NCBI GenBank assembly: GCA_044892525.1
Contig: CM097885.1
Coordinates: 115,134,001 to 115,198,000, forward strand
Length of the DNA: 64,000 bases
Reading direction: 5' to 3'
DNA from: Schmidtea polychroa
Lineage: Eukaryota
A model generated the notes under the pieces. It saw only the letters and a program-made list of their open reading frames with translations. It was not told the DNA's origin and searched no databases. Numbering within the stretch: position 1 is the first letter of the stretch; every line of letters begins with the position of its first letter. Of the stretch, positions 1-35,862 are shown one piece after another. The position numbers were made by a program, and so were the translations under genes.

Positions 1-1646
1 CAGACGATATCTTATGAATTTACTATGCTGCAGACAAACAGTTGGATTTAATCGCAAACGGTGATTGTCAAGATTCTTTCTTAGCTACTCTGATCGTCAG
101 GCTGATTTTCCTGAAAGATTTTCCTCAATCTATGTGAAGTTTGTTTGGATCTATCTAAACACTCATATCCATCTAAATCCGGATTAACCTCTGTTGGGAG
201 TTCAAGCTTCCTATACGAATATCAGAAATCCCGATATAACTGAACGAAATGATAGAATTATCCTCCTAACGATCGCGCTGAGTGAAGGAAAATTTTTACT
301 CCGCAACTGGATTTTTCCATCTACCGAGTCTCATCACCCCTCATGACACACCCAAGAAGGCATTCATTGCTGCCGCCATTCTTGCACCGTCATGAGGGAC
401 CAATCAACTCCTTTACATTCAAAAAAAAAAATTAAACATTCGTATAAAAGTCATAATAATGACAGAATAAATGATGAGCAAAATAAACAAATCGAAATAC
501 CCGGCGACCATATCATCTGGGCTCCAAGTATGATGCTTTTCCCTTTTCGATCATATATTCAATTTCAGCATTTGCAAACATCTCATTGATTATTATCACC
601 TTCTCCAGTCCTAATATCTTCGCAACATCTCCTAGATGCATGCCACAAAAACTCCTCGTGGCTACTTCCTCCATTTGGCATCATACTTGAAATCACCAGA
701 GGGTATAGTCGTCGGCACCATGAAGAAAGGCAGTTTCTATTTTCAAATAAATTTATTAAATGAAATTATTCTTATTATTTACAAAAATTTACTAAAGTCA
801 ATCATAAATATCTATTAAATTCAATCATATAAGACTAATCCATAAATAACTTAACATACTTCGAGGTTTGAAAAACTGGAGTTAATCGGTTAACGCGAAG
901 GTTTTCTTGAGTAAGTTTACTGAGCTTCTTCCTAAAATCGATTTGGTTGTTTTTGAAATTAGTCCTTCGTAGTAGTTCGTAAGTCAAGTTCTGCAATCGT
1001 GAAAATTAAAGTGGTTCCTGAATGTCGTCCTGTAGAGTTTGGTTAAAAGTGGTTGTTCAAATTTAAGAATTTTACCTGTAGAGTTTGGTTAAAAGTGGTA
1101 CTCTACTAATTTTTCGCGTTTCTTATATACTATTTTTTCGTCCAATCAGGACTCAGTTAGGTTGTAATTTTTATATTTATTATTATTTAATGTTTTTATT
1201 ATAATATATTAGCCTTTAATAACTTAACTTATTTCTTATTATTATTTTATTTATTTTTCTTATTCTTATTATTTTTCTCCTATTTTTCCTGCTGATTTAT
1301 GGTTACTTTATTGCCATATGATTTTTTGTTTTAATTAGGCTTAGAGATATTTTTATTTTTATTTATTGCTTTAATTTCTCGTTTATTTTCTCTCACTTTT
1401 TCGTTTATTCTATTTCTACTTTACCCGCTGGGTGCTTTAAATCCTTTCTCTTTTGTCTTCGTTCCAATTCTTAGGGGTTTTATTTATTTATTACTTATTC
1501 TTATTTCTTTTTATGGGTATTTTATTGTTTCCTTATTTACTATTGAGGTTTGATGGTAATTTATCTTTTATTATATTTTGTTTATTTTTCGAGGTTCGCT
1601 TCCCGATTCAACCCAGTTTTTCTCTACTTCAAAATTTAGCCCAACA
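1..1646 (-). repeat. 3' LTR (partial)
   Basis: Matches 33846-35452 apart from a 39-bp indel near 345-383, a 1-nt A-run difference and at least one substitution. Identity stops at ...tttagcccaaca (1646). Confidence 0.95.
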
Positions 1647-1877
1647 AATCACTCCGGGGCCCGTTAAAATTGCGTCCCGCAATTCACATAACATCATACA
1701 TTCAAATCATACTTCCTTTGGTATCAAATCTAATCTCATAATCAACATTCACACAAACATAAAAATAAATCGACTAACTAATACTTTAATTGACAGATAA
1801 AAGACAAATAAAAGCAAGCAGTGGCCACATATGGTGACCGGATTTATATACACAAATTTATGGATAGTCACAGGATC

Positions 1878-4706: not shown

Positions 4707-6106
4707 CTACTCTGTCCTACTCTTTCCATCTCGCCTCACTGTTATCTTTTTGTATATGGTATCGTTCCTCGTCATGTCCTCTACTTTTCGCTGTAAGATG
4801 AAATTCGGTGCTCCGGATGCTGGTCCTTCTTCCTCCAATGGCATCTGATAACATACGAGGTTTCCTGCTGTATGAAAACTCTGTTCATGTATACTTTGAT
4901 GATTCATCATTGCGAGGTTTATTTTCGCTTTGAACGTCATTCGATTAGCTCGTCGTATAACCCTTTGCACATAAAAAAGAATACTGAAAAATGTGTTCCG
5001 TATGCGCTTCCGTCCCAGTTGGGATACGCTTTCATTTTCATTTTATACCCGTTTTTCCATGCATAGAATGCTGGACTTAGCAATGTTGTATCCTTTCCGT
5101 TTCTCGCTTTCTGCATTTTTTCTTTTACTCCCGTTATCTTCCATATGTAGGGAGCCGTTGGTATTAATTCGTTGAGGTCCATTTTGCTCACTCTTTGATA
5201 TAGTTCTTTCACCATATTATTGCTAGTTTCTACTAAGTCGGTCTGTATCTTCGTACTTGTTCTCGCTTCTTCAAATGCTTCTTTTTCTTGTAATAACTCC
5301 TTTACCAACGCTTTTAGCGAGATTATTTCTTTTTCTAAGTTTTCGGTTTTCCTTTCGTTTTCTTGTAATACCGTTGACCACATCTCCGCGTGTGTTGATA
5401 CGTTCTCTGCTAGATGTTGGGGTAATTCTCCTCGGTGTAATTGTTTCTGACATCCCCATTTTCCTAACACACACGTTATCTTTTTCCTTTCACATTCTCT
5501 CAGATGTTGGGCGAGTTTTATAACTCCTGATTTATTGCATTTGTTAGGGCATTCTCCTCTGAACTCTGCGCACACTTTTTCCTCTTGTAGGTTGTGATGT
5601 TGATTAGTTAATTTTCTCCAGGTATCAGTTTCTCCGCAATATTCACATTTTTCCAGCCTTTCCTCGCATCGACTTTGATGTTCTTCCTCCTCATTTGCTT
5701 TAATCACTTCCTGGCAGCGTTTACATTGAGTGATCTTATATGCACATCCCTCCATATGCTGCTTGACTTCCCATATCAATCCTCGCCAACTACATGGGGT
5801 GTTTTTACATCCTAAATTTGCATTCAACATATCTTTCACTGCCGCTTTATCCTCGTTTGTCTCTTCCAAACTTGTTATCATGGCTTCTTTACATACTGGG
5901 CACCATTGTGGTCCCTTCTTTATTATCTCTTCTACACATTCTTTGCACATTCTGCATCCACATCTGGTTTGGTGAGGCTCTTTTAATAAACTCTTGCATA
6001 TTCCACACATTACATGGTTGTGTATTTGAATTGTGGTGGATTGTCTGACTAGCTCGACAATCTCTTTGAACTCTTCTCTTTGTCGCTTGTCCATTTCTAC
6101 AATCAT
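4707..6106 (-). pseudogene. Intronless TRAF-family protein (RING, TRAF zinc fingers, coiled coil, MATH) with stop/frameshift at ~4937
   Basis: CGICKSLLKEPHQTRCGCRMCKEC..CPVC RING; repeated C/H fingers; MATH start YIWKI..SPAFY..GYKM..YPN.DG..GTHFSVFF..KG.YD. MATH continues in the 4707-4970 frame (FKAKINL..ASGAPNF..NDTIY). Confidence 0.92.
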
Positions 6107-6185
6107 ATATATATATATATATATATTCGTTACTGGTACAGTTTCGTATTCTATTTACAATTATTTACATTTTATTTGGCTATAT

Positions 6186-8109: not shown

Positions 8110-8670
8110 TCACTTTTGTTCATTTTGATTTTGCGTGAATTTGAGGTCTTCCCGGTTTAGTACGATCAGTATGATTTTAGGAGTTCCTCCTTTCGTCAGC
8201 GTATTTTTAACCATTGCATTTTCTCCGTTTTCGTAGAACTCATTGATATTAATTGCATATTTATTGCTTTGTGGTATTCTCCATGTTAACAGTAACTTCA
8301 TAGCTTCTAAGTTTTTCCGTATCGTATTCCATTGGAACTGTGACGTATTCTTACAGATATTTTCTACCTCGTATCTTGTCGCATTTTTACAGATGAATCT
8401 AATCATTTCCAAGTTTGGTTGTATTGTTGCCCAATCCATGGTGGAATTTCCCTCGTTTGAGGTTTCGTCAAGTCTTGAACCTGATTGATGTAATATATGT
8501 AATGTTTTCGGGTGTATATTTGTTATTGCCGCATACATCATTGCTGTTTCTCCTTGTTCGTTTTTAGCGTTAGATTCTTCTCCTAAATCTCTAAGAATTC
8601 GCATGATTGTTATTGCTCTATTTTCTTTTGCTGCTAGTATTGCTTGTTGTAATGGTGTTCTTGAGTCTTT
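8110..8670 (-). pseudogene. Second ankyrin-repeat block of the pol extension
   Basis: TPLQQAI; NAKNEQGETAMMYAA; NEGNSTMDWA. Frameshift from the integrase ORF near 8670. Confidence 0.8.
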
Positions 8671-11194
8671 TGTTGGTATGGTGAATGCTTGTCTTTATTT
8701 TTCCTATGTCTAGATTTGTGGTCTGATCCCTTGCGTAGGTGTGTACTGTTTTTATTATTTTCGCTAGTATCGCTTCGTCAGATAAATCTCGCATTTCTTC
8801 GAAGAACACCTCTTTGGCTTTACGTATTACTATCTCGTGATCGGAGTTTATTATCTTTGCTTTACTTGTGGTTGTTATATTGTTTGGTATTTGATCGTCT
8901 TGTTTCTCAGACTCCCTGGTTGTTACTTTCTTCATTTTTATCTTTTTCCTGTTTGAACTGTTAATGCGTTCCTCCGCCGTAAGCACTTGAATAATACTTA
9001 GGTAGTTTTCTCGAATGTTATTCATGGTTTCCATCATATATAAGACACTCACAGTTTCCCAATATTTTACTTGTACTTTTTCGGTGAATTGAGATATGGA
9101 TTTTTCGAAACTGATAATTCGCTTTCTGATCAGTTGTTCGTCTTTGTGGTTTGAGAGCTTTATACCTCGTTGCAATAGTTGATTTGGAATTTCGAATAGA
9201 TGGTGTCCTCTCATAGCTTCTCTCATCAAGGTGTTTTCTCCTTTGGTAAATGTTTCGTTTATATCTACCATATAATCGTTTTTGATCGGGTTTCTCCACG
9301 AAATTAGTATTCCAGTAATGGTTATCAATTTCTCTTTGATTGCGGTTAATAGCCCGTCATACATATTTCCTATCTCTCTATTATCCTCATATGATAATAG
9401 ATCTACTAAGATTATGAAAGCTTCAGTACTTTTTCCTTTGATTGCATGATGTAGTGCATTTTTCTGATCGTGATCTTGTGTGGTTATCTTTGACCCTGTT
9501 TCCAGCAATGCTGTAATGATATCTTTAGTTTTATCCCGATTTGCTGCTATCATTAGTGGAGTGTAACCTTGATTGTTTTCTTGATTTGTCGAAATGTTAC
9601 AGTCATGAAATGCTTCAATCGTTTCCAATATTTGTTCATTATTACCAACCTTTAAAAGTTTGTGTAATGGTGTATCTCCGTAGTGGTCTGTGATCGTGAA
9701 TAATATAGGCCATTGACTTTTAACCACTCTGAGCAATGGGTGCGTTCTTTCCCGATTTGCATAATTTTCTATCATTGTTAGTAGACCTCCTAGTATTTCA
9801 AAATCCAATCTATCTTTTGCCCATCCGGGTATTTTAACTTTTACCTCTTTTATGATTCTTTCTGCTTCTGACGGTTGTAATCCTAGTCGACTGCCTGTTG
9901 GTTCGGTTACCTGTCGTAACATGTTCATTCTGTACGTTTGTGATCTTGTTGTTAATGTACGTCCTTCTGGCTGGCTAGTAGCTGTTTTCGGTATTGGTTT
10001 GCAGCGTGCAACGTTTACATATATTGGCCTTGTGAATGGATTGTTTACTAATCGTACTCTTACGTTAGTTTCTCCGACGAATAAAATCTCATACGGTCCT
10101 TTGCCATTGCGTTGTAATTTCTTGGTGGTTCCGGGAATTAATTCTGGTGTTTCGATCATCACCCAATCGCCTGTTTGAAACGTATGTTGTTTAACGTTTT
10201 TCTTTCTATCATGCAGATCTTTGTAGCTCTCCTGATAAAATTTTATGTTTAATCCTGCAGTTTCCCAGATTTCCTGCATTCTTTCCTTGAACTTCGTTAC
10301 ATAATCGTCTATTTCCATATATTGTGATATTGGTAGCTGATACTCTAAATCCATTGGCATATTACATTCTCTGCCGTACATCAACTTGAACGGACTCATC
10401 TTTGTGGATGCATGGATTGACATCCGGTAAGCCATTAGACATAATTTTATGTATTCATCCCAATCCCGTTGGTGACGGTCAACATAATTTGACAACATTT
10501 GAATGAGCGTTCCATTGAATCTTTCTGTCATACCATTTGTTTGTGGATGATACGGTGATGTTCTTAATTTTGCAATCTTGAAGTAGTTGGTTACTTCGCT
10601 CATTATTTCACTCATGAAATTTGTCCCTTGATCGGTCAGTATTTGTTTTGGCGTTCCATATCGACAACATATCTCTTCTACTAGTATTTTGGCTATTGTT
10701 TTTGCTTTCTGGTCTGCCATAGCGAACGCTTCAGGGAATTTAGTTAGATAATCCGTAATTACCAATATATAAATATTTCCTCTATCTGATTCTGGCAGTG
10801 GACCGACTACGTCCATTGATATCATTATCATTGGTTCAGCTGGTACTGGCATTGGCGTTAATGGTGCTTTCCATTTTGTTCCCGTATTTTTCCTAGTTGC
10901 GCAAGTTATACAATTTTTCACCCATTCCATTACATCCTCAGGTAACGTAGGCCAGAAGTATTTTTGTTTCATTCGTGCTAGCGTCTTTTTTGATGACATA
11001 TGTCCTCCGAGTCTTCCGTCATGATATTGCGTTAGCAAATCCTTGCGTCTATTCTCTGGGATACACATTAGTCTTTTTTCACCATCCATTATCAATAACC
11101 AATCCTTTTCTATTATATATCGGTGTCGATGTTTATCCATATGCTCTTTCAACTTTTGATCTTTCTCATATACCTCTGCTTTCCCGGTTTTCAC
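8618..11194 (-). CDS. Integrase (HHCC, DDE, GPY) fused to ankyrin repeats
   Basis: YHDGRLGGH..CITC; SMDVVGP; TDQGTNF; PYHPQTNGMTERFN; GPYEI; then GDTPLHKL, GYTPLMIAA, KNALHHAI. Confidence 0.95.
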   Translation of the reverse strand: MKTGKAEVYEKDQKLKEHMDKHRHRYIIEKDWLLIMDGEKRLMCIPENRRKDLLTQYHDGRLGGHMSSKKTLARMKQKYFWPTLPEDVMEWVKNCITCATRKNTGTKWKAPLTPMPVPAEPMIMISMDVVGPLPESDRGNIYILVITDYLTKFPEAFAMADQKAKTIAKILVEEICCRYGTPKQILTDQGTNFMSEIMSEVTNYFKIAKLRTSPYHPQTNGMTERFNGTLIQMLSNYVDRHQRDWDEYIKLCLMAYRMSIHASTKMSPFKLMYGRECNMPMDLEYQLPISQYMEIDDYVTKFKERMQEIWETAGLNIKFYQESYKDLHDRKKNVKQHTFQTGDWVMIETPELIPGTTKKLQRNGKGPYEILFVGETNVRVRLVNNPFTRPIYVNVARCKPIPKTATSQPEGRTLTTRSQTYRMNMLRQVTEPTGSRLGLQPSEAERIIKEVKVKIPGWAKDRLDFEILGGLLTMIENYANRERTHPLLRVVKSQWPILFTITDHYGDTPLHKLLKVGNNEQILETIEAFHDCNISTNQENNQGYTPLMIAANRDKTKDIITALLETGSKITTQDHDQKNALHHAIKGKSTEAFIILVDLLSYEDNREIGNMYDGLLTAIKEKLITITGILISWRNPIKNDYMVDINETFTKGENTLMREAMRGHHLFEIPNQLLQRGIKLSNHKDEQLIRKRIISFEKSISQFTEKVQVKYWETVSVLYMMETMNNIRENYLSIIQVLTAEERINSSNRKKIKMKKVTTRESEKQDDQIPNNITTTSKAKIINSDHEIVIRKAKEVFFEEMRDLSDEAILAKIIKTVHTYARDQTTNLDIGKIKTSIHHTNKRLKNTITTSNTSSKRK

Positions 11195-11206
11195 GTATTC
11201 GATAAT

Positions 11207-13601
11207 TTACTTCAACTCTACATCATCTTGTTGGTCTTTCCGTAATTGGCAAAAGTCTAAATCTTCCGCTACCATCAGACATATTCGTTGCATTTCGTGA
11301 TCCACTAAGTCTGGAAAAATAAATCTTGACATACAATCTGCATTTGCGTTTGCTCTTCCTGCTTTGAATTTTATGAATGGTGAATATTCCTGTAATTGCA
11401 TAGCCCATCGCATCAATCTACTGGAGGCTTCTTTGTGTTGTCCGAGCCATACTAATGGTTGATGATCTGTTGTTATACATATTTCATGTCCCCATAATAG
11501 ATATCGAAAATGCTTAATTGCCTGTATTATTGCTAATGCTTCCCTTTCTGTTACCGAGTAGTTTTTCTCATGTTTCTTGAACGTTCTGCTGTAGTAGCCG
11601 ATTACTCTCTCCTTACCTTCATCGTCTAGTTGTCCCAGTATTGCTCCGGCTGCATAACCACTTGCATCTGTCGCTAATAAAAACGGTTTCTTGAAATCTG
11701 GATGTACTAGTATTGGGGCTTCGATTAATTTATCTCGTAATGTTTCGAACGCCTTTTGTTGTTCTGCTCCTCAGATAAAGGAAATATCTTTTTTCACTAA
11801 TTCTTGGATAGGTTTCGCAATGCCTGCATAGTTTTTAATGAATTTACGATAATATCCGCCTAGTCCAAGAAATTCTTGAACTTGAGTGACGGTTTTCGGT
11901 GCTGGACAGGTTTTTATTTTTTTCTATATTTCTGGGATCTGGTTCTTTGCCTTTTGCTGACACTATGTGTCCTAGGAACGTAACCTTCTCTTTTGCCCAA
12001 TCACACTTTGATGGTTTGAGTTTCAATTTCCATTGCCTTAATCGGATGAACACATTTCTAATATCCTCCAAATGTTGTTCAAATGTTGCTGAATATATTA
12101 ATAGATCATCAATATATACCATACACTGCTTGATCCCGTGCGTGACAAAGTTCATGCATCTTTGAAATGATGCTGGGGCATTAGTTAATCCAAATGGCAT
12201 TTTCCTGAATTTGTATAGATCTCGTCCCAATGTGAATGCTGTTTTCTCCTTGTCCTCCTCTTTGACTTTGATCTGCCAATATCCGCTTTTCAGATCTAAA
12301 GATGTAAAATATGCGGCTCCCTGTAACATAAGCAACATCTCATTGATGTCTGGTAGCGGGTATGTGTCTCTTTTCGTTACCGCGTTGAGTTTTCGATAAT
12401 CGATACAGAATCTCTGCGTACCGTCTTTTTTCTTCACCATGACTACTGGAAATTTCCATGGTGAACAACTCGGTTCAATTACTTTTGCGTCTAACATCTT
12501 TTGCACTTCTGCTTCAGCTATTTCTTTTTGTTTTTCTGCTAGTTTGTATAAACGTAATGCGATTGGAGTTTCGTCTATCAACGGTATTGCGTGTAATGTA
12601 ACATCGCATGCTCCCAAATCCAAATCCGAAATGGCGAATATATCTTTATATTCTATCAATAATTGTTGAAGTTTTCCTTTTTCATTCTCTGTTAGCAAGG
12701 TACTATCGATTATCCATAATTCGTCAGTCTTCATGGTGTCGTTGATGATCTTTGGTAATTCAATGTCCATCATCGGTGTTAATCTACCCAATCTTTCATT
12801 CTCATATATGATCTTATCTTCTTCCTCGAAATTCGTGATGTTAATTGGTATTTCTCCTTCTTCATTTATTGTTATTATTTCTCTTGCCAATGGTAATTCT
12901 CGTCTTTTTTCGAATGATTTGCTTGGTTCGAATATGGCTTCTCCTTCCATTCCGGTATCTACTTTTATTTGACATATCATTTGTGATTTTGTTGGTACAA
13001 TTATTTTTTCCGGACATCTAATTATGGCTTTCATCTTGCATATTCTACCCAATTTGTCTTTTAGGCACATTGTTGTTAGATCGATTACCACTTCTTTGAA
13101 TAATTCCGGCATTAAGTCTGTTCCGATTATACAGGGTTCACTCAGTTTTGGTATTACCGCCAGATAGGTTTCGATTTCATTATCTTGATATCGCAACTTG
13201 GTCCGCCATCTTCCCACTACGTCTACTGTCTCTTTGCTGCATGCAATAATATGGATGGTTGTCTGTTCGATGTCTTTCCAATATTTACTGGGTATTTGAT
13301 TTATTGCTATTGCCGATACATTTGCTCCGGTATCTATCATTGCGCTCGTCTCTTTTCCATTAATTCGGATCATGACTGTTACGGCTGAGCCTCCTAGCGA
13401 ACTCATTACTGCTATCGTTCTTACGTCATCAGCTTGGTCTACGCTTTTGGTTCTTCGGGTTGGCATATAATTCATTCCTGGTTGACTTGGTAACTGTGGA
13501 TACATATTTGTGTCATGGTTAAAGCTGCTTGTGGTCCCACGATATCCGGTGGTATATAACTTCCATTGGCTATCCAAGTATTCGTCTTTTCTTTCTCCCA
13601 A
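11207..13601 (-). pseudogene. Protease - reverse transcriptase - RNase H
   Basis: IDTGANVS protease; RFCIDYRKLN, PFGLTNAP, VYIDD; TDASG, EREALAI, TDHQPL, NADCMSR. Frameshift ~11920, TGA 11771-11773, TAA 11207-11209. Confidence 0.96.
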
Positions 13602-15853
13602 TATGGTGCTGTTTCTATTTGCTTTTCGTGCGGGTTTCTACTTGGATATGGGTATTTATCATTTCCGTTATCATCGTCATCGCTATCGCTGCTGTTTGAG
13701 CGATTTCTAAATCTTTCCAGGAATTTTGGTTTGTTCTTCTTTAGTTGTGCTCTCGTGGCTTCGTCATACATTGTTTTCCGGAATCGTCTGCCAACTTCCT
13801 CGTCCGTTCCTTTTATTTTGGTTAATATTTTAATCAATCGTTTTATCCGATGAATGTCTTTTGAGTGGCCGTGTAACAGCATTGTTTTGGCTAAGAATGG
13901 TAGAAATCCCACTATCAATTTCCAATTCACTTTCTTCTCCCTCTTGTATATATCAAAACAAGCTAACATTTGAGTTAGGATTACTCTGACTATTTGAATT
14001 ATGAGTATGATTCCTAATATTCCGGCCATCATTTGTCCAAATACTAAAAATCTTCCCCACATTGCTTTCATCATTTTTGACGTGGCTTGTTGGAAATGAT
14101 CGGGTGACAATAATAGCTCATAATTTGGACCCGTTTGATAATTCGTTCCCCCGGTTATAGTTACCATATTTGACAATATTGACTCTCGTCTGACTGGAAA
14201 AAGTATGTTTAGCCGTGCTGTTTCTAGATCTTCTGGGGAATACATACCTCCGTTTGATACGTCAATGGGTTTGAAGACTTGTTCCGTGGCGAGTTCTATT
14301 AATCCAAACTTCTTGGGCTCCTCTGTTATGGATTTTACCGGTAACATTATCCATTTCCCATCGGGTCTTTCATACAATGGTCCGTACGCATTAGAACAGT
14401 TAAAGAGATTCGGGTAGAAACCCACTGGGTTCATAATTCTGGTGACTGGTTGGACGAATCGGTTTTGTCCTTTATAACGAATTTCTAATTCATTTGCACA
14501 TTTCCCTGATGGTATTGTGGGTTTTTCTGGCATTCGTGCATACGTCTTGGTACACTGATAGGTGTACATTACTTCTCCTACCATTCTTCCAAAATGTCCA
14601 TCTGGTAATGGAAGTGATGGCATCGTATTATCTGGATGCGTTATCGCGATAGCTAGTTTTGTTTTCAGTATCTCTTTATTCAATGAACAATCGTTTTGTA
14701 TCAGATCGTAATATACTTTTTGTAGTGTCGTTTGTCCACGATGAAATAAAAAATCCATTTTGTTGTTGGCGTATAGGTACAGTTTGACGTCTTCTGTGGC
14801 TATCTTTCCCACTGCTCTATCTATTATCTGCCTTGACATGTAGATGCCTGCGTAGTTAGTCTTGGATACTATACTATCGCATTTGGTGGTTTCCTTCTCC
14901 TTGATAAATCTCATGCCCAGGTCTGGATCGTCTGTGATTAGTGCCGTTGGTGTTTTCTGTGTTGAGAGTCTTTTTTCTCTGGGCGATGGTGGCACTGGTT
15001 TTCCGTTTCGCATGTGTACTTTCCCATTTCCATCTTCGTCGTCTTCGTTCTCATAAAATTCTCCCTTTACTTCATTGAACAAGGCACTTTTTAACAGTTG
15101 GAGTCGGCATTTTTGAGTGTTAGCTTCATATATTATGGTCGATACCCCCGTCTTGCATACGTTTTCCGTGGCTTTACATGTTGGGTTGGTTTTCATTTGA
15201 TAATTATTGGCGTCGAATTGTGCCTCGTATTCTTTTAATTCAACGGTGTAAGACTCGATCACTACTACCCCTGATATCACCTCTCCTCTGATCGTATATG
15301 CACCTCCGTTACATGATCCATCGCCTGCGTTTACACGTCCGGCTACATAAATACTTTCTGTTTTAATCATTCCGCTTTGTCCATGTTTTGTTACTCCGTT
15401 ATGCATTTTCATTGCTCCGGTTCTGAAGAGCTCCTTGCAGTCCTCTCTTTGTATGGATACTATTTCTTTATCTAATCCGGGTAGTATGAGATTTGAATAG
15501 GAATATTGTCCACAGTAATATGCGAGTACCCTTTTTGATACCACGCATTCCCTTGCTTGGGTCCTGATAAAATCCGATTCTTGATATACGTGGTATGTGA
15601 CCTTTCTATTTACTATGTCTAACTTGTTCGGCGATGCTTGTCTACATTCTTCTATATCTCTCAGTGAGTATTTGTCTCTCATTATCGAATTATCACAATC
15701 GTAAATTGTAAATCCACCTGCTCCGCTTGTACATAGCATCCATATCATCATGGTCATCATTAGTGAGTTAATTGACGCTTTTCTGCTGGCTGGGTCTTTT
15801 AATGGCAATTCCCATTCTAGTTCGTTTAGTAATTTCTTCAACCTGATTTGCAT
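13472..15853 (-). CDS. Envelope glycoprotein resembling chuvirus/Monjiviricetes class III fusion proteins
   Basis: Signal-like LMMTMMIWMLCTSGAGG, then TIYDC..YSLRDIEEC, ECVVSKRVLAYYCG, REDCKELFRTG, many conserved Cys, and TM anchor WGRFLVFGQMMAGILGIILII. Confidence 0.8.
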   Translation of the reverse strand: MQIRLKKLLNELEWELPLKDPASRKASINSLMMTMMIWMLCTSGAGGFTIYDCDNSIMRDKYSLRDIEECRQASPNKLDIVNRKVTYHVYQESDFIRTQARECVVSKRVLAYYCGQYSYSNLILPGLDKEIVSIQREDCKELFRTGAMKMHNGVTKHGQSGMIKTESIYVAGRVNAGDGSCNGGAYTIRGEVISGVVVIESYTVELKEYEAQFDANNYQMKTNPTCKATENVCKTGVSTIIYEANTQKCRLQLLKSALFNEVKGEFYENEDDEDGNGKVHMRNGKPVPPSPREKRLSTQKTPTALITDDPDLGMRFIKEKETTKCDSIVSKTNYAGIYMSRQIIDRAVGKIATEDVKLYLYANNKMDFLFHRGQTTLQKVYYDLIQNDCSLNKEILKTKLAIAITHPDNTMPSLPLPDGHFGRMVGEVMYTYQCTKTYARMPEKPTIPSGKCANELEIRYKGQNRFVQPVTRIMNPVGFYPNLFNCSNAYGPLYERPDGKWIMLPVKSITEEPKKFGLIELATEQVFKPIDVSNGGMYSPEDLETARLNILFPVRRESILSNMVTITGGTNYQTGPNYELLLSPDHFQQATSKMMKAMWGRFLVFGQMMAGILGIILIIQIVRVILTQMLACFDIYKREKKVNWKLIVGFLPFLAKTMLLHGHSKDIHRIKRLIKILTKIKGTDEEVGRRFRKTMYDEATRAQLKKNKPKFLERFRNRSNSSDSDDDDNGNDKYPYPSRNPHEKQIETAPYWEKEKTNTWIANGSYIPPDIVGPQAALTMTQICIHSYQVNQE

Positions 15854-15918
15854 TGATCTTTCTTGTTCGTTCTTTCGTGGGGCTTGTATCAGCCTTTTCC
15901 ATCCACCGGCGTGGATAA

Positions 15919-18900
15919 TAGGGTGGGTCGAATGTTAATAAATTTTGAGTTCAAGAAAGGAAACATGGTTAAAAAGTTGTATTTTGGTATAGAAAAATCG
16001 AATCAAACCATTTTACTTAGATTTATGAACATTTACTGCTCCCAACTTTTCTCCGAAAATGCAGTTCAACATAAGTGTGAAAACAATGTAATTTGGCTAG
16101 TGTCGGAATGTGTTTTGCGCCTTTGTCCATATTTAGATGTAGCTTTCTTAAGAGCTTATAAGTATATTATTTACTCTCTTGGGCTGAGATAGTATATTCT
16201 GTGTCCTCATCCCGCATTGAAATATATCCTGACAACGTCAGTGATTAGGAAGGGCCAAATTTGAATTATCCTTTTCAAAGACAAAAATCAACTTTCGAAA
16301 TTATTTTTTATTAAAAACATCCAGCCAAAAGTTTAGAAATGTATTAGCGAGGGCATAAAAAGAAGTCACATGAAATCAGCTTTGCTTTGCACCTTGGGCA
16401 ATTCCTTCCTTGATTTTTTACACAGTAGTACCATACCATGTCTGGACTTGTGACCAAACACTTTGCAACTGGCAGAAGAAACATCTTTGATGGCTCTTTC
16501 AACGGCTTGAGAATGACAGGGAAATTGTTCTAATGTAATTTTCTTATTCATCTTCAATTCATGATCCAATATATGAGATAAAAGAGGGGGAGGCGTCAAA
16601 TTACATTTTGTCCAGTCAATCATGTCAACATATGATGTAGCAGACGACTGAAGAAAGACAGTATTCTTGTCCATAGTGCGAATCACTTCGGAAGGGAGAA
16701 AATTTTTTCTTGCAGTTATGATTTTTTCTGTTGCAAACTTTCTGATTTCTTCATCATCATCACCAACAGCAGCTAGGAGTATATTTTCTGGATGTGAGAA
16801 GTAATTGTTGTTCTGAATGACAGGAAAGATGATTTCTTGGTCTGATGGATCCAAATCCTGCAGAAGTTGGAGCATATAAAAAATATTTCTTGCACCATCT
16901 TGGCATGACGAGTGAGTCTTTATATAAAACCATGACGGTCCATAGAAATTGACAATAAATTTCACTATTCGCATGAGAGGTTCAGATGGAGCAGTTTCGG
17001 ACATATATAGTCGCAGAATTATATTAGCTTTCGTTAGCCAGCGACTGTGATTCAAATTTCCTGGTTGTGCCATTTGTAGAAAAGGGACATCCTTGTTGTT
17101 GTGGTACCCTTTCTGGACTGCCAAGCATACTCTGAGGAAATACAATTGATCAGTGTTCAATTCTTTCTTGACATTTTCACTAATATCTACGACCTTTCCA
17201 GGAAGGGACATAAAGGCTACTACGGGCTTGTCTTTTGGATCAAAATCAAGAACGCTTCCTATTTCACCACATGACGTTTTTGGACCTTTTGTTTCTCCAC
17301 CATCGACGACTGAAAAATACTTCCTGAATGGCAATTCATTTGCATGCAACAAGCATATCAGCCATTGTAGAGGTCGCCCTAGGCTTTTTTCGAGTCTTCT
17401 GATTATTCCATTATTTTTTCCGGTGTTTGTATTGGTTGCATCGCACACAATTGCTTGAAGGGTCAGTGAGGACTGCGTGCTAACGATGATTGACATGATT
17501 TCTTTGCCAATATCCACAGCTTTACTACTTTGAGGTACAACATGATCGATATATGTATCCCCTGGAAAGGCGACAATCACATAATGCTCCTCTTTTAGGA
17601 TCCTTCTATGAAGTAAGGTGGAATCTTGTTTCCCGTCGAAACCGAGGTAAATCAAGTTTTTCGCTTCTGCTGAATGCTGTTCAATTTCTCTCTCCCTCCA
17701 GTACTTTCTCTGACGCCGTAATTTTGCGGGATCGATGATTGTTTGAGAGGATAACAGTTCCATATCTTTCAGAAAAGCGTTTACTAGCAAACACGTGTCT
17801 CTGTTGCTCACACTACATCTGTCAACAGCTTTACTTAATTCAGGATAATGTCTTCTATTTTGAAATTCATCACATTCTTCTACGCTTGACTCTGAGCTTT
17901 CTGTTGAATTGTCTAACTTATCTTTACTTTCATCACTAGCGGCTTTACTCTCCGTGTCACTTCTTGAGGTCGGATGTAGATCGTTAACTTCAGTGTCCAT
18001 TATTTCATTTTTCATTTGTTTTCCTTTTCCTGTAGGGCTGCTTTTCGTTTGTTTTCTCTTCAATTTTGAGGTTTCCTGTCTGTCCGTATTTCCGATTTTC
18101 ATGTTTCTGGTAGTTTGTTGGTCAATCCAGAACTCCCACTCTAAGGTAGGAATTTTCAAGGCCAACCGGCATGTACACTGACTTCTTCCACGAGCACCAT
18201 CATTAAAACATTTGCAGCAACATATGTCAAACAATTTGGAAAACGAGCTTAACTTATCTTGAAATTTGGCAGATGACCTCTTGCATTCTGGATACTTCTC
18301 TAATTCACGCACTTTTGATATTAGTCGCTTGACACGAACCACAATACTACTGAACTCAACAGTTGGGATACTTGCCTTCATATAAATTTCCTTCACCTTA
18401 TTTGCGAGAAGAGTTGCTTGTTCGTTAAAGCCAGTATGAAATTGCGTACATTTCTCATTGTAACAGTAATCACGAAACACATCTTCACAAGTAGGTAATT
18501 GGTTTCTGGGTAGTTCACAAGTTTGACCAAACAGACAATGACGTGATTTATTTCTTGTTTTGCGAAATTGCTTATTTCTCTGTCCCTTCATAACTGCTCT
18601 TCTGTACTCAGCTCTGGCAAAATAAAAGTGAATCATCAAGTTAACTTTTTTAATTAGGTCCAGCAAACACTTGACATCCAATCGAAACAAATTAAATTAT
18701 CTGAGTTTAGACTGACTAGTAGTATCCATGTGGATTATATGTTGACTGTAGTATGTGTGTTAGTATTGTTCAGAAGAAATTGTCTTTGTGAGTGCTTGTG
18801 TGAAGGTGCTTCCGTGAATTAACCTCTCTATACATGCACGCGTTAGCTTGGACTTGTGAATAGAGCATATCAAAAATGGTCTTTCTGCAAGCGTGTGACT

Positions 18901-19089
18901 GCTTGCAGGATGAGTTTACAATGGCACGTGTGCGAGCATTTTTACTGGGATAGTACTAATACATACAAACAAAAGTTGGGACCTGTAAACCCTTTTAAAC
19001 AGCAGTCTTTTGCAGGGATATTTCATTTTCTAGCATAAGCACAACTTTTTAGGCATGTTTGGAGAAAAAAAAAATTTCGACCCACCCTA
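15919..19089 (-). mobile_element. hAT-superfamily DNA transposon (probably hATm-like) nested in the LTR element
   Basis: 14-bp TIR TAGGGTGGGTCGAA; 8-bp TSD GTGGATAA at 15911-15918 and 19090-19097. Confidence 0.88.
16366..18690 (-). CDS. DDE transposase, apparently intact
   Basis: FDGKQD, VCDATNTNTG, WLICLLHANELP (CxxH), HSRWLT, YFSHPEN, PCHSQAVER. Confidence 0.9.
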   Translation of the reverse strand: MFRLDVKCLLDLIKKVNLMIHFYFARAEYRRAVMKGQRNKQFRKTRNKSRHCLFGQTCELPRNQLPTCEDVFRDYCYNEKCTQFHTGFNEQATLLANKVKEIYMKASIPTVEFSSIVVRVKRLISKVRELEKYPECKRSSAKFQDKLSSFSKLFDICCCKCFNDGARGRSQCTCRLALKIPTLEWEFWIDQQTTRNMKIGNTDRQETSKLKRKQTKSSPTGKGKQMKNEIMDTEVNDLHPTSRSDTESKAASDESKDKLDNSTESSESSVEECDEFQNRRHYPELSKAVDRCSVSNRDTCLLVNAFLKDMELLSSQTIIDPAKLRRQRKYWREREIEQHSAEAKNLIYLGFDGKQDSTLLHRRILKEEHYVIVAFPGDTYIDHVVPQSSKAVDIGKEIMSIIVSTQSSLTLQAIVCDATNTNTGKNNGIIRRLEKSLGRPLQWLICLLHANELPFRKYFSVVDGGETKGPKTSCGEIGSVLDFDPKDKPVVAFMSLPGKVVDISENVKKELNTDQLYFLRVCLAVQKGYHNNKDVPFLQMAQPGNLNHSRWLTKANIILRLYMSETAPSEPLMRIVKFIVNFYGPSWFYIKTHSSCQDGARNIFYMLQLLQDLDPSDQEIIFPVIQNNNYFSHPENILLAAVGDDDEEIRKFATEKIITARKNFLPSEVIRTMDKNTVFLQSSATSYVDMIDWTKCNLTPPPLLSHILDHELKMNKKITLEQFPCHSQAVERAIKDVSSASCKVFGHKSRHGMVLLCKKSRKELPKVQSKADFM

Positions 19090-21216
19090 GTGGATAATGT
19101 GTGGTTCAATTGTATTTTCGATGATTGTAACTGTCATTTCTACATGATTTGCGAATTGTTTGTTTGGTATCTTCCTTGCAGCTAATCCCATCAAATTGTA
19201 CATTAAATACGTTAGCACTACTAGATGATGTTCATCGTTGTTTGCGTTTAAAGTCAATTGCTCGATCATTCTACTTGTCTCTTCCCAATCTGTTTTAGCG
19301 GTCTTTGTTTTCTCTTTGATTAATTTCGGAATTATTCCGGATATTGCATTCCACAGTTGTCTGGCTTCTACACTCGCTACTTTCCGTTGCCATAGTCGTC
19401 TCAACTGTGGATTGGTTATTATTAGCATATCCTTTACTAACTCCCGTATCCATTTTTCACCTCTTTCGATTGTTGGCTGGGTTTCTTTTAGATCCCACAC
19501 TATTTTGTCCAGTTTTTCTAATCTGGCTTGCCCTTGTTCTTGTTTTAATTGTTCTCTGGTTTTGAATTCGGGGTTTTCGCCTTGCTTCTTGGGTCTTCCT
19601 TTTACCCGTTTCTCCATCATTGTTCCGGCTTCTCTCGTCATTTCGTAACTCGGGTTTCTCTCATTATCCGTTCTCGGCAATGAGCTATCATTGTTTCTCA
19701 GCCATTCATTCCATTCATCTATAATTTTGTCATTTTTCCCCTCCGTTGGCAGCTTGGTTGGTTCTTGTAATCTCTTTATTTGTTCATCCGTTTCAGTTTC
19801 TGTTGTATTATCCATAATTTCCTCAATACTCAGTTTATTTGGTAGTTGATAACTAGTGGATGGTTGGTTTGTTGTCCATGTTTCTGCTCCTGTCGGCCAT
19901 CTCACTAGAATTGGCGATCTTTCTCCAGCTTCTTCGTCACTATCTTCCAATATGATCTCCTCGATCTCTTCAGTTTCATTTGATTTGCTTGGCACGTTGT
20001 CAGGGCTTGGTGTACTCAAGCTACCTTTCGTGGGTTTGCTGGATTTGGTTTTCCTTTTGATTGGTTTTCCCAATGTTTCTGCCATTGTCAATACATTGAT
20101 TTCCCCCAGTCTCATGGGTGTTATTCCGACGTCTGCATTATCATCTAATGATTTTCCTTGCAGTTGTAGATGGAAAGGAGTTTCATATGCTAATTTCTTT
20201 TTTAATTCTCGGATTTTTGTGGTTGGATGCACCTCTACTTCCTCGACATTTTTATCTGGGTATTTAATTCGAATTCGATATCTTTCTTGGGTGTCTTATG
20301 ACCATTCATGGGTTCGCCATTTCCCGATGATTTGCTCCAATTGTTCCGGGTACCATTCGTTGTACTGTCGGTATTCTTCTATAGTCTTTACTATTTCTCT
20401 CAGATAGTGGATGTTGTCTGATACTTTTAGAATGAAGTTAGCCAATGCTATTACTTGTCGTTTTTGATTTTTCACTCCCATTATTAAGATATCACCTAAT
20501 TGTTTATATCTTTCTCTCTCTTCTCGATCTCTTGCTTCTATCGCTTCTTCACTGTCCATATCGGCATATTCACGTTCCTTCTTTCTCATTGCATGAATGT
20601 GTCTGGTTTCCGTTTCGCTTTCGGACGTGACATCTGTTTCACTTTCGTCATCTGATTCCGGTTCTATTTTGTCTTCTTCGTATTTCGGAGGTTCATCTTC
20701 CTCTTCTTCTGACTCACTTTCTATCTCACCGATGTCGGTTTCTACGAAAATTCCTTTCCTAATTTCCCATTCTTTATTTTCTGCATTCCACATCCAAGGG
20801 GTTCGTCTGCAAGATCTAGTACTCAGTTTCTTTATTTTCCCTTGTAGTTCTTTTTCGTTTAGCCACTGTTGATGCATTTCAATTATCTCTACTGATTTTT
20901 GGTATAGCGTTTTCATCCTATCTCGTATCTCTTTCTGGTAGGTCACATCTCTTGTGCGAAATTCATCCATGGGTAATATCCTGATTATTTGATGATTATC
21001 CCACATGCCCATTTCGCTTAACGAGGTGTCGTCCTCAGCTCGTAATATTATTTTGTCGTACATCATGACTACATCATCTATCATACCGTCGCTACTTTCA
21101 CTTCGTACCTTTTCCGTTATCTCTTGGTTTATCTTTGCTACCAAGTCATCCACCGTACTCTGGTTGCTCATTTTTATTCGTCGCTTCTCCTCGTTCGGCA
21201 ACCATATGGTTATTTC
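19090..21216 (-). pseudogene. Gag extension, part 2: ubiquitin-like domains 2 and 3, acidic repeat, Bcl-2-like region
   Basis: The 20296-21201 and 19087-20232 ORFs share a frame across one TAA and rejoin the flanking ORFs when the insertions are removed. Confidence 0.7.
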
Positions 21217-21624
21217 TAAAAAAAAAAAAAAAAAATCAAATTTTATTTTAATAAACCATCAGGCCCATCGGGCATAAGGGGAGATATTCTCGACCCTTTG
21301 AAATCTAAAGCTTTTTTTTCTGTTAACTGGCGAACGCTGAGCAGGTGCTCAAGCGTTAAACGAGAGGTCTGATTGGTTGATGTTGAAGCTTCTTGAGACA
21401 AGCTCCACTTTCATATAATAAAGATATTTTGGGTATAAATAAGGTTATGCATGGATATACAGTATTATATATAGGATATAGTTGGTGAGTTTTTGGTAGT
21501 TCAGAAGAATAGTGGGTAGACGAGGTGGGAGGTACAGGTACTACAGTGTGAGGTAAAGGGTTAGAGGTTGGAAGACATATGGTAGGGGTTTAATAGTATG
21601 TTAGGTGTGAAGGTTTTGGGTGAA

Positions 21625-21830
21625 GAGGTTGATGGAAGTTAGAGGTTGGAATGTAGAGGTTGGAATGTAGAGGTTGGAATGTAGAGGTTGGAAGGTAGAG
21701 GTTGGAAGGTAGAGGTTGGAAGGTAGAGGTTGGAAGGTAGAGGTTTGAAGGTAGAGGTTGGACGGTAGAGTTTGGACGGTAGAGGTTGGAGGGCATAGTA
21801 TTGAAAGGTAGAGGTTTGAGAGTAGGTTGT
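21625..21830. repeat. 14-bp minisatellite (tagaggttggaagg)n in the LINE 3' UTR
   Basis: About 12 tandem copies visible. Confidence 0.9.
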
Positions 21831-21999
21831 AGGGTGAAGGTTTCTTAAGGCTATTTAAAGATACGGTATAGGCGGGTAGAAGTGGGAGAGTAGAGGTTGA
21901 AGGATAGGTGAAAGGTTGTTTTAATTATTGTTTTTTTTTTAAATATTAAATATAAATAAGCAAATATAGGAATGAGGCAACACAAGAAAAGAGACGCTT

Positions 22000-22660: not shown

Positions 22661-22808
22661 CACATTGATGGGCAGGTGTCCAGTATGTCCTTGTATCATT
22701 GGGTATTCAACACGGTGGGTCCTTTCTATTAAATAAGTCGGTTGCCCGAGGAGGTGCATGGTATAGAATAATGGATATATTGTTTTTATTATTGTAATCG
22801 TTATTATT

Positions 22809-27070: not shown

Positions 27071-28990
27071 CTAGAATATTTTCTGAATTCTCTGGTTTCC
27101 CTTTAGCGGTGTTGTTGAATTTTCTCTTTTGCTTTCTATCATTGTTTCTTTTGGCTTCTCTGGTTCGATCATAGGTACAACTCTTGGATTTTTACCGTAA
27201 TTATAACAATATTGTTCCTTTATGTCTTTCACCATTCTCATCATATTTATCCTTAACGGTTGTTCTTGTCGTTGCCGAATTCGCTCTTGTTTTATTCTTT
27301 CTTCGTCAGCTTGTAATCTCTGCCATTCTTGTGCGTGTTGTTGTGCTTCATAATTGTTGAGATTTTCGGTGCTCCTTATCATACGTATATTCTGAGTTTG
27401 TTGTGGTACTTGTTCTTGTCTTGGTCTCATCATTTGTTGCATCATCTGCTTCATTTGTGAAATTTCTTGCATTACATTCATTTGTTTTCCCTCACTGGGG
27501 TTACTTTGTCGTTGCGGATTCGATGCATAATTATTATTTCGCTGGGGTGGTCGTTGTTGTTGGCTTCTTTCTCGGCACTCCCTCGAGATGTGACCTGGTT
27601 GACCACAGTTAAAACATGTTCTCATTTGGCATATATTTTCCGTGTGCCCTCGTCGTCCACACCTACTACAATTTGCGTTTCGGTAACAATCTCTATCCCA
27701 ATGCCCTAGTTTTCCGCATGTTCGACATTGTTTATTTTCGTTCATATTCCTCCTATTATTGGAGTTACTCCCGTTATTCATATTGTTACGATCGCTACTA
27801 TTCCCACTAGGTCGTCCTTGTGGTGGTTTGAAAATTTGGTGTGCTCCTGGTATAAATTGATTCATCTTTGGTTCATGATTGTTATGATCGCCATTCTCTG
27901 TTTTTGCCGTTGCTGTCGCGATTCTCCCCTCTTCTTGCATGACATTCATTTGCGCTGGGAGGTGAAGTTCGCATCTCGTGGCCCAATCTATGGCCTCTTC
28001 CAAGGTCTTACACATTTGGCATCCCACCGAGGCTCTTACCTCCTCTCGGCGAAGTCCTTCTATAAAATAACCAACAGGTTTTCCTCCGGTAAGTTTCCGT
28101 TCATGGCTTTCTTTGCTAATCTTCGCAATTCGCTTGCATATAACGTTATCGACTCGTTGGCTCTTTGTTTTCTACTTGCTAGTTCGTTTAATGCTTGATT
28201 TATCGGTTTGCTGGCTCCGAACGTTCTCCTCAAAAATGTTTTGATGCTTTTCCAATTGTTCAATGTCGTATTTCTTTCTTTCTCCTCTAGATACACCTCG
28301 AGTGCGCTATCGCACAAAAATAAAGGCATTCGTTTACTGATTGCTTCCTCTGTCCATCCGCACACCGTTGTGTAAACTTCAAAGTTGGTTATAAACGCTG
28401 CTAATTTATTCGCATTCCCATTGAAGGGTTCGCCTCTGAATTTCTCCTTATACTCTTCTGGTTTGCTAACATTCGTCATGATCGGTTCTTGAAGTTCTAC
28501 GATTTCTTTTAAATTATCTAACGATGTGGCTAAACTATGGGTGGATAGTTCTTCTGTTGATGCTGTTAGACTGTTCGTTATATCGGTTATACTTTCTCTG
28601 CTTCTAGATCGGCTTGGGGTAACTCGGGTTGTTGGGTTTTCTTTGTCGTCTATTGGTATTCTGGTTGTTTCGTTAGGTCCTTGCGATAATCCTCATTTAT
28701 GGCGATTTGATCTTGTTCTTTTGATGCTTTGCAATTGTTCTACTGAAAATAATGTATCGTATTGATTACTTGAGGATCTGAGCGCTCTTGAATTAGCCGT
28801 GATTTTTTCCTGTTGTCCCTTTGTCTCCTCTTGGTTTTTCTGTACTTTGGGCGGGTCCGACTTGGTTTGGATTGTTGGTTTCTCCGAATTCCTCCTGTGC
28901 AGGTTCTGAAATGCCTTAACTGGATTGCTTTTTCAGTCTTCTTCGGGTTCCTTCTGGACTGGTTCTGAATTGACTTGGTTGTATTGATAT
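27071..28990 (-). pseudogene. Gag: capsid-like domain and three CCHC zinc knuckles; frameshift ~28070
   Basis: EPFNG..AFITNFE; YFIEGL..TLEEAI after frame correction; CRTCGKLGHWDRDC, CSRCGRRGHTENIC, CFNCGQPGHISREC. Confidence 0.9.
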
Positions 28991-32960: not shown

Positions 32961-35452
32961 TGTTGTAGGGCCAGAAATTCGGTAGCATTTATATTTATTT
33001 GTGTAGAATCAGTCCTGATAAATGAAAGTATTGCGAACTATATTTTATAATTAATATATTAGGAATTAAAATATAATATTTTCCAAAAACGCGCCATGCT
33101 CGTTGTCGTGGTGACGCCTACACGTGTGTGTTTGTATGTCATGTTTCGTCTCTACGACGCGGCTTATCATGCTTACTGGATCAGTCTGGACTCATGCCTT
33201 TCAAGCAAATTCATCTATCCACTCTCTCGCCCTTACACACAGTTCTACTATCCTGAGCAATTACGATTACGAAATTATGATGTCATAGTGTAGTTTACTA
33301 TCCAGATTTATTACCATCCTACTGAGATGCATTCTATTTTAAGGCGTAATAATGCGTGTATTTCCGAGACACAGTCGATTAAGATTTCTACTAGAAGTTT
33401 TATGAGCAACCATATTCTAGATGGTAGATGACCAATTCGGGGGATAATAGGTGAACTGGTGTTGGAAATCTAATTTTTATCGTACGGACGACTCAAGATA
33501 ATCACTTGTCAGTGCATCAACTGAATAAGTCAGTACGGAAATTGGTATCTTATCATTCCTACCAGATTCCCGTCGGTCGTTTAATTCTATTAGCCACAGT
33601 TTGACTGAAATTCATTTATCAATTATCTGACAACCTCGACCGCGGCTTCCTAATGCAATTAACAATTTACCGATGACACTGTCAGTGGTTGATCTCATCT
33701 CTATCGTCGATAGTCCGATAATTGCTCATGATTTATTTACCTTATTTGCAGAAAACGGCGCTTATCAGAAATCCGAGTGTCAACAATCAAGGCTATAAGT
33801 ACATCCCCTATGGGTTTCATCGCTAACGTGCTGGCAATCCAAATCAGACGATATCTTATGAATTTACTATGCTGCAGACAAACAGTTGGATTTAATCGCA
33901 AACGGTGATTGTCAAGATTCTTTCTTAGCTACTCTGATCGTCAGGCTGATTTTCCTGAAAGATTTTCCTCAATCTATGTGAAGTTTGTTTGGATCTATCT
34001 AAACACTCATATCCATCTAAATCCGGATTAACCTCTGTTGGGAGTTCAAGCTTCCTATACGAATATCAGAAATCCCGATATAACTGAACGAAATGATAGA
34101 ATTATCCTCCTAACGATCGCGCTGAGTGAAGGAAAATTTTTACTCCGCAACTGGATTTTTCCATCTACCGAGTCTCATCACCCCTCATGCACCGTCATGA
34201 GGGACCAATCAACTCCTTTACATTCAAAAAAAAAAAATTAAACATTCGTATAAAAGTCATAATAATGACAGAATAAATGATGAGCAAAATAAACAAATCG
34301 AAATACCCGGCGACCATATCATCTGGGCTCCAAGTATGATGCTTTTCCCTTTTCGATCATATATTCAATTTCAGCATTTGCAAACATCTCATTGATTATT
34401 ATCACCTTCTCCAGTCCTAATATCTTCGCAACATCTCCTAGATGCATGCCACAAAAACTCCTCGTGGCTACTTCCTCCATTTGGCATCATACTTGAAATC
34501 ACCAGAGGGTATAGTCGTCGGCACCATGAAGAAAGGCAGTTTCTATTTTCAAATAAATTTATTAAATGAAATTATTCTTATTATTTACAAAAATTTACTA
34601 AAGTCAATCATAAATATCTATTAAATTCAATCATATAAGACTAATCCATAAATAACTTAACATACTTCGAGGTTTGAAAAACTGGAGTTAATCGGTTAAC
34701 GCGAAGGTTTTCTTGAGTAAGTTTACTGAGCTTCTTCCTAAAATCGATTTGGTTGTTTTTGAAATTAGTCCTTCGTAGTAGTTCGTAAGTCAAGTTCTGC
34801 AATCGTGAAAATTAAAGTGGTTCCTGAATGTCGTCCTGTAGAGTTTGGTTAAAAGTGGTTGTTCAAATTTAAAAATTTTACCTGTAGAGTTTGGTTAAAA
34901 GTGGTACTCTACTAATTTTTCGCGTTTCTTATATACTATTTTTTCGTCCAATCAGGACTCAGTTAGGTTGTAATTTTTATATTTATTATTATTTAATGTT
35001 TTTATTATAATATATTAGCCTTTAATAACTTAACTTATTTCTTATTATTATTTTATTTATTTTTCTTATTCTTATTATTTTTCTCCTATTTTTCCTGCTG
35101 ATTTATGGTTACTTTATTGCCATATGATTTTTTGTTTTAATTAGGCTTAGAGATATTTTTATTTTTATTTATTGCTTTAATTTCTCGTTTATTTTCTCTC
35201 ACTTTTTCGTTTATTCTATTTCTACTTTACCCGCTGGGTGCTTTAAATCCTTTCTCTTTTGTCTTCGTTCCAATTCTTAGGGGTTTTATTTATTTATTAC
35301 TTATTCTTATTTCTTTTTATGGGTATTTTATTGTTTCCTTATTTACTATTGAGGTTTGATGGTAATTTATCTTTTATTATATTTTGTTTATTTTTCGAGG
35401 TTCGCTTCCCGATTCAACCCAGTTTTTCTCTACTTCAAAATTTAGCCCAACA
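32961..35452 (-). repeat. 5' LTR, about 2.49 kb
   Basis: Right end is fixed by the repeat boundary (TGTTGGGCT on minus). Left end is inferred from plus-strand TGTTGTAGGG at 32961, which gives TGTTG...CAACA termini. Confidence 0.8.
34877..34952 (-). promoter_or_regulatory. LTR promoter: CCAAT box, TATA box and downstream 5' splice donor
   Basis: ATTGG/CCAAT at 34948-34952; GTATATAAG at 34936-34928; CAG|GTAAAA donor at 34882/34881. The same layout occurs in the related LTR at 43.2 kb. Confidence 0.65.
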
Positions 35453-35862
35453 ATAGTCAACTTTTATTCTGCAACTCCATCTGCAAACAAATCTTGATAC
35501 GATGATGAAAAGACACTGACACACAAGCACAGCGAGTAAATCGAGATCCTTATCGACTCACGGTAGAGTGTGATGCAACTAGACGATGCCCACGAAATAC
35601 CCGATAACGTCATGACGTCTCCCAGTAGATAATAATTTTTTATTACTCAACAGAGCATGAGGATAATTGAGTGAAATTAACATGAGGTCCACGAATGCAC
35701 ACCAGATAGAAATCTGAAACTAATGCATGTCTACACACAGTTAAGCGTCACTATGATGACAATTACGGTGTGGAATTTAAATAGTTAAACTTTTAAATTA
35801 TAATAAAAAATATATTTAAATTAACAACTTGTGATTTTACACCAATCTATCCCGGTTTAACA
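35453..35862 (+). mobile_element. 3' part of a related LTR into which the main element inserted
   Basis: Patchy similarity to the distal main LTR (acacacag..gcgtcac..), followed by ORF-X and the motif in the same order. End coordinate is tentative. Confidence 0.45.

Follow-up and report, generated by a model that had tools for sequence, protein, structure and literature searches.

In a 64,000-nucleotide stretch of the Schmidtea polychroa genome (GenBank assembly GCA_044892525.1, contig CM097885.1, positions 115,134,001 to 115,198,000 of the forward strand; hereafter the window), the first 35.5 kb constitute one giant gypsy-like long terminal repeat (LTR) element on the minus strand. A segment of its polyprotein region, located directly before env and split by a DNA transposon, is very probably a diverged Bcl-2-like module, and the element itself a giant LTR retroelement of the Burro type. 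By its sequence, the segment is best classed as Bcl-2-like and not as a canonical member of PF00452, as it reaches neither the 31.4-bit cut-off of that family nor a recognizable NWGR motif. The Bcl-2 label is drawn from relatives of the element, because no Bcl-2 signal is obtained with the window piece alone. The features at the split site are as follows.

15728..15766, minus strand: hydrophobic stretch of 13 residues preceding the env ectodomain (mean hydropathy 1.62)
15869..15910, minus strand: short C-terminal part of the Bcl-2-like domain with the GGW (15907-15899) resembling Bcl-2 homology region 2 (BH2), from the reading of the open reading frame (ORF)
15911-15918 and 19090-19097, no strand: 8-bp target-site duplication, identical copies
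15919..19089 (3171 bp), minus strand: DNA transposon with hATm-type termini, from terminal inverted repeats, target duplication, and ORF
19090..19485, minus strand: N-terminal, larger portion of the Bcl-2-like domain, with helices 1-6 predicted

A search with env yielded P0001 and P0002, intact polyproteins of ~4,000 residues each (2 of 4145 candidates; 37-38% identity), and a metagenome scan yielded one further locus, L001 (1 of 302 pattern matches). A single ORF spans the entire P0002 element, and its Gag, ubiquitin-like, Bcl2-like, Env, protease, reverse transcriptase, RNase H, and integrase domains follow one another in one chain. Both P0002 and L001 contain the ubiquitin-like domain and, between it and env, a segment ending in GGW, as in the window. 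PF00452 was the sole family among 24,736 Pfam families to match these segments, i.e. residues 1034-1182 of P0002 (E 0.0061, 17.5 bits) and L001:2596-3030 (E 0.029, 15.3 bits), which share 28% identity with each other (pairwise z 11.3).

A profile of the three sequences was compared with the PDB, and Bcl-xL/Bcl-2 chains account for 58 of the 60 matches listed (best E 0.04; helices 4-8), with two designed proteins ranking above these chains. The three-way alignments are out of register in the N-terminal half relative to the global alignment, and only helices 4-8 were counted. The profile of the two relatives scored 11.4 bits with the larger window piece, a value equalled in 2 of 5000 shuffles, and 20.1 bits with the read-through sequence carrying an X at the break, which none of 5000 shuffles reached; in a separate shuffle set, one of 942 reached 17.2 bits, below 20.1. 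Of 2547 six-frame pieces, the window ORF comes first with this profile. In the PDB, profile A7 returned Bcl-xL in all 36 rows, over the BH2 stretch only (E 1.2-2.3), and the two-sequence profile A1 only ribosomal protein L19 (E 3). Homologue searches with the window piece (501 candidates) and with P0002 1040-1200 (830 candidates) gave no match, nor did the two-sequence profile among 1.84 billion proteins; no usable match to the window piece or the L001 segment was obtained in the ESM Atlas, and scans of viral contigs with env revealed no relative. The Bcl-2-like identity, proposed in an earlier sequence-only reading of this DNA, is thus supported by the two intact relatives, which match PF00452 only, and by the published domain order of Burro (PMC6431247; this and the other papers are cited from the portions of their text available).

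The peptides quoted in the sequence-only reading are present: the EHHLVV...IEPHIIH part forms the end of ORF 19087-20295, and the GGW part the start of ORF 13472-15934. The break falls just before BH2, leaving about 130 of 145 residues on one side and the GGW with a dozen more on the other. The domain had been described as invisible in the ORF track, which proved incorrect, as these ~130 residues lie in a visible 402-codon ORF and are merely unlabelled. The E of EHHL and the W of GGW delimit 52 residues, both ends included (48 to the break, with GGW at offset 1 after it), and the same number separates the W of NWGR from the W of GGW in the aligned Bcl-xL chain, in agreement with the claimed Bcl-2-family spacing; the distance is 51 in P0002 and 50 in L001. 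A hydrophobic helix-5-like segment starts at ~19233, and in the window, P0002, and L001 the helix-5 position coincides with the most hydrophobic 13-mer. All three sequences therefore have a GGW about 50 residues after the BH1 position and a hydrophobic central helix between the two. As had been read, the GGW of the window is intact and the NWGR at the BH1 position is not; the motif is missing from the relatives too, with its arginine replaced by His in the window and by Lys in both P0002 and L001.

Structure prediction, the check named beforehand, gave all-helical models of low confidence for the window piece (predicted local distance difference test score, pLDDT, 52) and for the L001 segment, modelled from a two-row alignment (pLDDT 53; predicted template modelling score 0.43). 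For the L001 model, every one of the 42 Foldseek matches listed belongs to the Bcl-2 family, with alignments of 130-166 columns, and BAK and BOK occur among them beside pro-survival chains; the window-piece model returned no Bcl-2 chain. In BFVD, four named viral Bcl-2-like proteins are among the best 50 matches, at non-significant E values (0.8-2.1). The absences in these fold searches are uninformative because the confidence of the models is low.

Several results weigh against the assignment or the function proposed below. The window piece alone had no Bcl-2 match in Pfam, PDB sequences, the ESM Atlas, VIA, or Foldseek; its pairwise comparison with P0002 was not significant (z -0.7), and its score with L001 was 50, compared with 49 for an unrelated P0002 segment. 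The Pfam scores of P0002 and L001 (17.5 and 15.3 bits) lie below the curated cut-off, and these segments were picked by eye for GGW, with the Bcl-2 family named beforehand. The first rank in the six-frame comparison carries an E value of 0.21. The Foldseek matches of the L001 model have E values of 0.17-0.65, template modelling (TM) scores of 0.21-0.29, and root-mean-square deviations of 10-14 Å. Neither predicted model superposes on Bcl-2, and with E values this poor and TM scores of ~0.26, the order of the matches mirrors sequence and local structure, as opposed to a correct bundle. VIA-align placed no Bcl-2 chain among the best 50 matches of either the window or the L001 model. P0001 had no match to the Bcl-2-like profile, so that the module is found in two of the three relatives and is dispensable. 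The NWGR motif, whose glycine and arginine are important for BH3 binding, is absent in all three sequences. Finally, an in-frame TGA lies between the GGW and the hydrophobic stretch of L001 (3058-3060) in a frame that is otherwise open, which breaks the anchor model described below for this locus unless the stop is a lesion or is read through.

If the segment were an unrelated helical spacer of the polyprotein, the GGW and its spacing would be coincidental. The lack of a significant match to the window piece in any library searched, the lack of a significant Bcl-2 match in fold searches of the low-confidence models, and the zero matches in the large protein searches are compatible with such a spacer. 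It is nevertheless unlikely, since two diverged relatives independently return PF00452 only, the position is that of the published BCL2-like motif of Burro, and the X read-through scored above all 5000 shuffles. The absence of the domain from P0001 and the greater divergence of the window version at BH1 relative to the other two sequences could also suggest a Bcl-2-derived but decaying passenger or, as the best PDB matches do not separate pro-death from anti-death members (BAK and BOK being listed), a Bax/Bak-like membrane disruptor aiding particle release. However, the domain is in frame in lineages whose env sequences are only 37-39% identical, which implies long retention, and the sequence matches place Bcl-xL/Bcl-2 first; we consider both variants quite improbable.

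On balance, we favour, with moderate confidence, a Bcl-2-like module that has a pro-survival role, is anchored in the endoplasmic reticulum (ER), and uses a non-canonical groove. The hydrophobic stretch at 15728..15766 is probably the env signal sequence and could, by its position, also serve as a candidate tail anchor of the Bcl-2-like domain. It follows the GGW after 47 residues in the window, 62 in P0002, and 29 in L001, and it is found ahead of the env ectodomain in each of the four sequences, including P0001, which lacks the Bcl-2-like domain; a second hydrophobic stretch follows the ectodomain. In the proposed mechanism, the stretch after GGW would enter the ER as the env signal, and a signal peptidase cut after it would release Env into the lumen, and the second stretch would bring the chain back to the cytosolic side, where the protease and pol follow. 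The protease of the element would cut upstream, after the ubiquitin-like domain, and the Bcl-2-like domain would stay behind at the cytosolic side of the ER, the signal sequence serving as its tail anchor. A C-terminal anchor on the cytosolic face is the usual topology of Bcl-2 proteins. The domain would then damp host cell death, so that cells producing the element's proteins would survive; the TRAF-like and RING companions in the same element also count in favour of this reading. A motif of the form hydrophobic-Asn-hydrophobic-hydrophobic occurs just after the ubiquitin-like domain (20100), with eight matches in 12 ORF pieces and none between the GGW and the signal stretch in these pieces; that it is the protease site is a guess.

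A non-canonical groove would be used because the NWGR arginine is replaced. The glycine and arginine of NWGR matter for BH3 binding, the arginine contacting BH3 peptides (PMC9027176), and viral proteins without NWGR may keep BH3 peptide binding or may switch to NF-kB control (PMC4358236). Alternatively, the Bcl-2 fold may have been retained and its role in apoptosis lost; the domain would then act as a binding scaffold and, along with the TRAF-like, RING, ankyrin, and ubiquitin-like cargo of the element, block innate or ubiquitin signalling. The replacement of the BH1 arginine in all three sequences, the companion domains of the ubiquitin pathway, and the precedent of vaccinia A49, A46, A52, B14, and K7 (PMC4358236) are in line with this possibility, which we regard as rather doubtful. 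Enough of the GGW and its spacing is preserved for Bcl-xL to be found by sequence searches, whereas A49 is described, in the text available, as having no identifiable sequence similarity (PMC4358236); moreover, binding of BH3 peptides is known for M11, N1, and F1 and, in weaker form, for ORFV125, which has SPGR (PMC9027176, PMC4358236). For the pro-survival, ER-anchored module, a wider generalization can be offered only tentatively: the env signal of Burro-type elements may double as an ER tail anchor, with the ratio of membrane-bound death inhibitor to envelope protein fixed, and the module may be optional, may extend beyond the described planarian elements, and may dispense with the NWGR arginine.

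The splitting of the domain by a transposon, also part of the sequence-only reading, was confirmed. The terminal inverted repeats are 14 bp long and perfect (15919-15932 and 19076-19089), and the 8-bp duplication is identical on both sides. The ends of hATm elements have been reported as 5'-TAGGGTG...CACCCTA-3', and the window transposon has the same termini and a target duplication of the 8- or 9-bp length given for hATm (PMC6004678). Its transposase-like ORF (16366-18696; 776 codons) is intact; unlike the hATm reference, this 776-aa ORF matched neither the Pfam hAT domain (PF05699) nor any PDB sequence, so that the label 'hAT' is based on the termini and the duplication. Contigs from four of 24 listed sequencing runs (X1, X4, X5, and X6) were aligned to the site. 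Those skipping exactly 3179 letters, i.e. the transposon plus one duplication, occur in X1 and X4, and one X6 contig aligns to both flanks, indicating that uninterrupted copies exist; the flanking ORFs are in register across the insertion site. The hATm-type transposon appears to be a young, high-copy element. Numerous runs contain it in near-identical form, among them metatranscriptomes of leaf litter and runs whose labels name other organisms (shares 0.42-0.47). X6 also contains one 3179-letter transposon contig with 18 differences.

The remaining features of the host element are listed below.

1..1647, no strand: 3' LTR, possibly continuing past the window start
4937..6154, minus strand: accessory TRAF-like ORF with RING and MATH (PF22486 E 2e-11, PF00097 E 6.5e-05)
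8110..13637, minus strand: protease, reverse transcriptase, RNase H, integrase, and ankyrin repeats, in four ORF pieces (ORFs and Pfam)
13472..15727, minus strand: env, a Monjiviricetes-type fusion glycoprotein (PF24664 E 8.3e-73)
20131..20274, minus strand: ubiquitin-like domain in the same ORF as the Bcl-2-like part and upstream of it (PF00240 E 0.0064, under the cut-off)
27071..28692, minus strand: Gag with CCHC zinc knuckles, in two ORF pieces (Pfam scan)
30451-30948, minus strand: accessory ORF with a C-terminal C3HC4 RING, upstream of gag (PF13920 E 1.2e-08)
33845..35453, no strand: 5' LTR, pairing with 1..1647

From 5' to 3', the element comprises the RING ORF, Gag, a nested non-LTR element, a linker, the ubiquitin-like domain, and the Bcl-2-like segment, followed by env, protease, reverse transcriptase, RNase H, integrase, ankyrin repeats, and, downstream of pol, the TRAF-like ORF. 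Env thus directly follows the Bcl-2-like domain, as had been claimed (PF24664, E 8e-73), and its transmembrane helix is placed at ~14032-13976 by hydropathy. The RING of ORF 30451-30948 is presumably of the kind found at the end of IAP proteins; no Pfam match to BIR or dUTPase was found in the 31 ORF pieces scanned, with short frames outside the scan. The LTR pair agrees with the size of about 30 kb of Burro-type elements, its span taking in at least two nested insertions. The LTRs align over 1648 columns with one mismatch and 40 gap positions (1-1647 vs 33845-35453). The polyprotein region consists of eleven ORF pieces in changing frames, indicating that the copy has decayed independently of the transposon insertion. 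With the BH2 part and candidate anchor parted from the rest by the transposon and with stops and frameshifts elsewhere, the window copy cannot make the protein.

Some further observations were made on the element and its surroundings. The near-identical LTRs contrast with an interior carrying many stops, frameshifts, and two nested insertions, which could reflect recent trans mobilization of a defective copy, LTR homogenization, or an assembly effect. The non-LTR retrotransposon nested between gag and the linker (~21300-26200, minus strand; reverse transcriptase E 4.9e-32) includes a zinc-binding, probable restriction-like endonuclease ORF (23229-24587), 87-bp tandem repeats (22003-22665), and an N run (22809-23025). 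Two related acidic units are present in the polyprotein linker (26100-27070 and 20296-21258; 35% identity over 121 columns), and P0002 seems by eye to carry two ubiquitin-like domains, so that a repeated linker-plus-ubiquitin unit is possible. Diverged inverted copies of part of the element's 5' region (69-76% identity) lie at 31475-32661 and 36298-37491, the latter beyond the 5' LTR. After the integrase, the last 500 residues of P0001 and P0002 comprise another hydrophobic stretch and an unannotated domain and end in a transmembrane segment, which suggests a second membrane protein; P0001 also has three protease-like domains. Elsewhere in the window, a proteasome subunit ORF on the plus strand (52185-52832; PF00227 E 2.6e-22) is probably a host gene, and the nested long inverted repeats at 53900-60900 (578 bp at 100%, ~1 kb at 83%) are probably foldback elements or similar to miniature inverted-repeat transposable elements. 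The GC content beyond 38 kb is low (0.23-0.34 in most bins), which is compatible with a planarian host.

In planarian Burro elements, a ubiquitin-like motif precedes BCL-2, env lies between BCL2 and the protease and matches mononegavirus glycoproteins, and ankyrin and MATH/TRAF domains are present (Arkhipova and Yushenova 2019, PMC6431247). The same source credits the BCL2-like motif of Burro/GYPSM1 to Grohme et al. 2018, also names Jurka 2007 as a source, and states that a dUTPase-like motif in Burro was called by HHpred. The window element shares with Burro the giant LTR structure, CCHC Gag, ubiquitin-like and BCL2-like domains, mononegavirus-like env, protease-reverse transcriptase-RNase H-integrase order, and ankyrin and MATH/TRAF cargo; it differs in the position of its TRAF-like ORF, downstream of pol, in the lack of a BIR or dUTPase match in the pieces scanned, and in that this copy is broken by the DNA transposon, a non-LTR insertion, stops, and frameshifts. 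The Burro-type assignment was made from the published domain layout and cargo. Because the window element has the Burro layout, we consider the finding a further instance of a published Burro feature, in a dead copy. Two points are added, namely that the module is optional (one of three relatives lacks it) and that the env signal lies 29-62 residues after the GGW. BURRO1 transcripts are reported in tissues and BURRO1 RNAi is reported not to rescue a piwi phenotype, in a text that does not mention this domain (PMC8532177), and the available part of PMC11410931 mentions Burro only as a giant repeat; no functional test or membrane-topology discussion of the Burro motif was found in the literature searched, with subscription papers and supplements outside its scope. 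The broken window copy itself contributes little, and P0002 and L001 give domain boundaries for functional work, with P0001 as a natural control lacking the domain.

Compared with Bcl-xL/Bcl-2 (PF00452), the module shares the hydrophobic helix-5 segment, the GGW, equal BH1-BH2 spacing, and a downstream hydrophobic stretch, whereas it lacks NWGR, scores below the Pfam cut-off, and is part of a polyprotein; its fold and any BH3 binding are putative. Large DNA viruses are the main known source of viral Bcl-2 mimics, and a retroelement polyprotein with a Bcl-2-like module suggests that env-bearing invertebrate elements manipulate host cell death. Like KsBcl-2 of Kaposi's sarcoma-associated herpesvirus, myxoma M11, and vaccinia N1 and A49, the module would be a captured, strongly diverged Bcl-2 module in a virus-like element; those proteins, however, are encoded by separate genes of large DNA viruses, whereas here it is a polyprotein domain ahead of an env signal.

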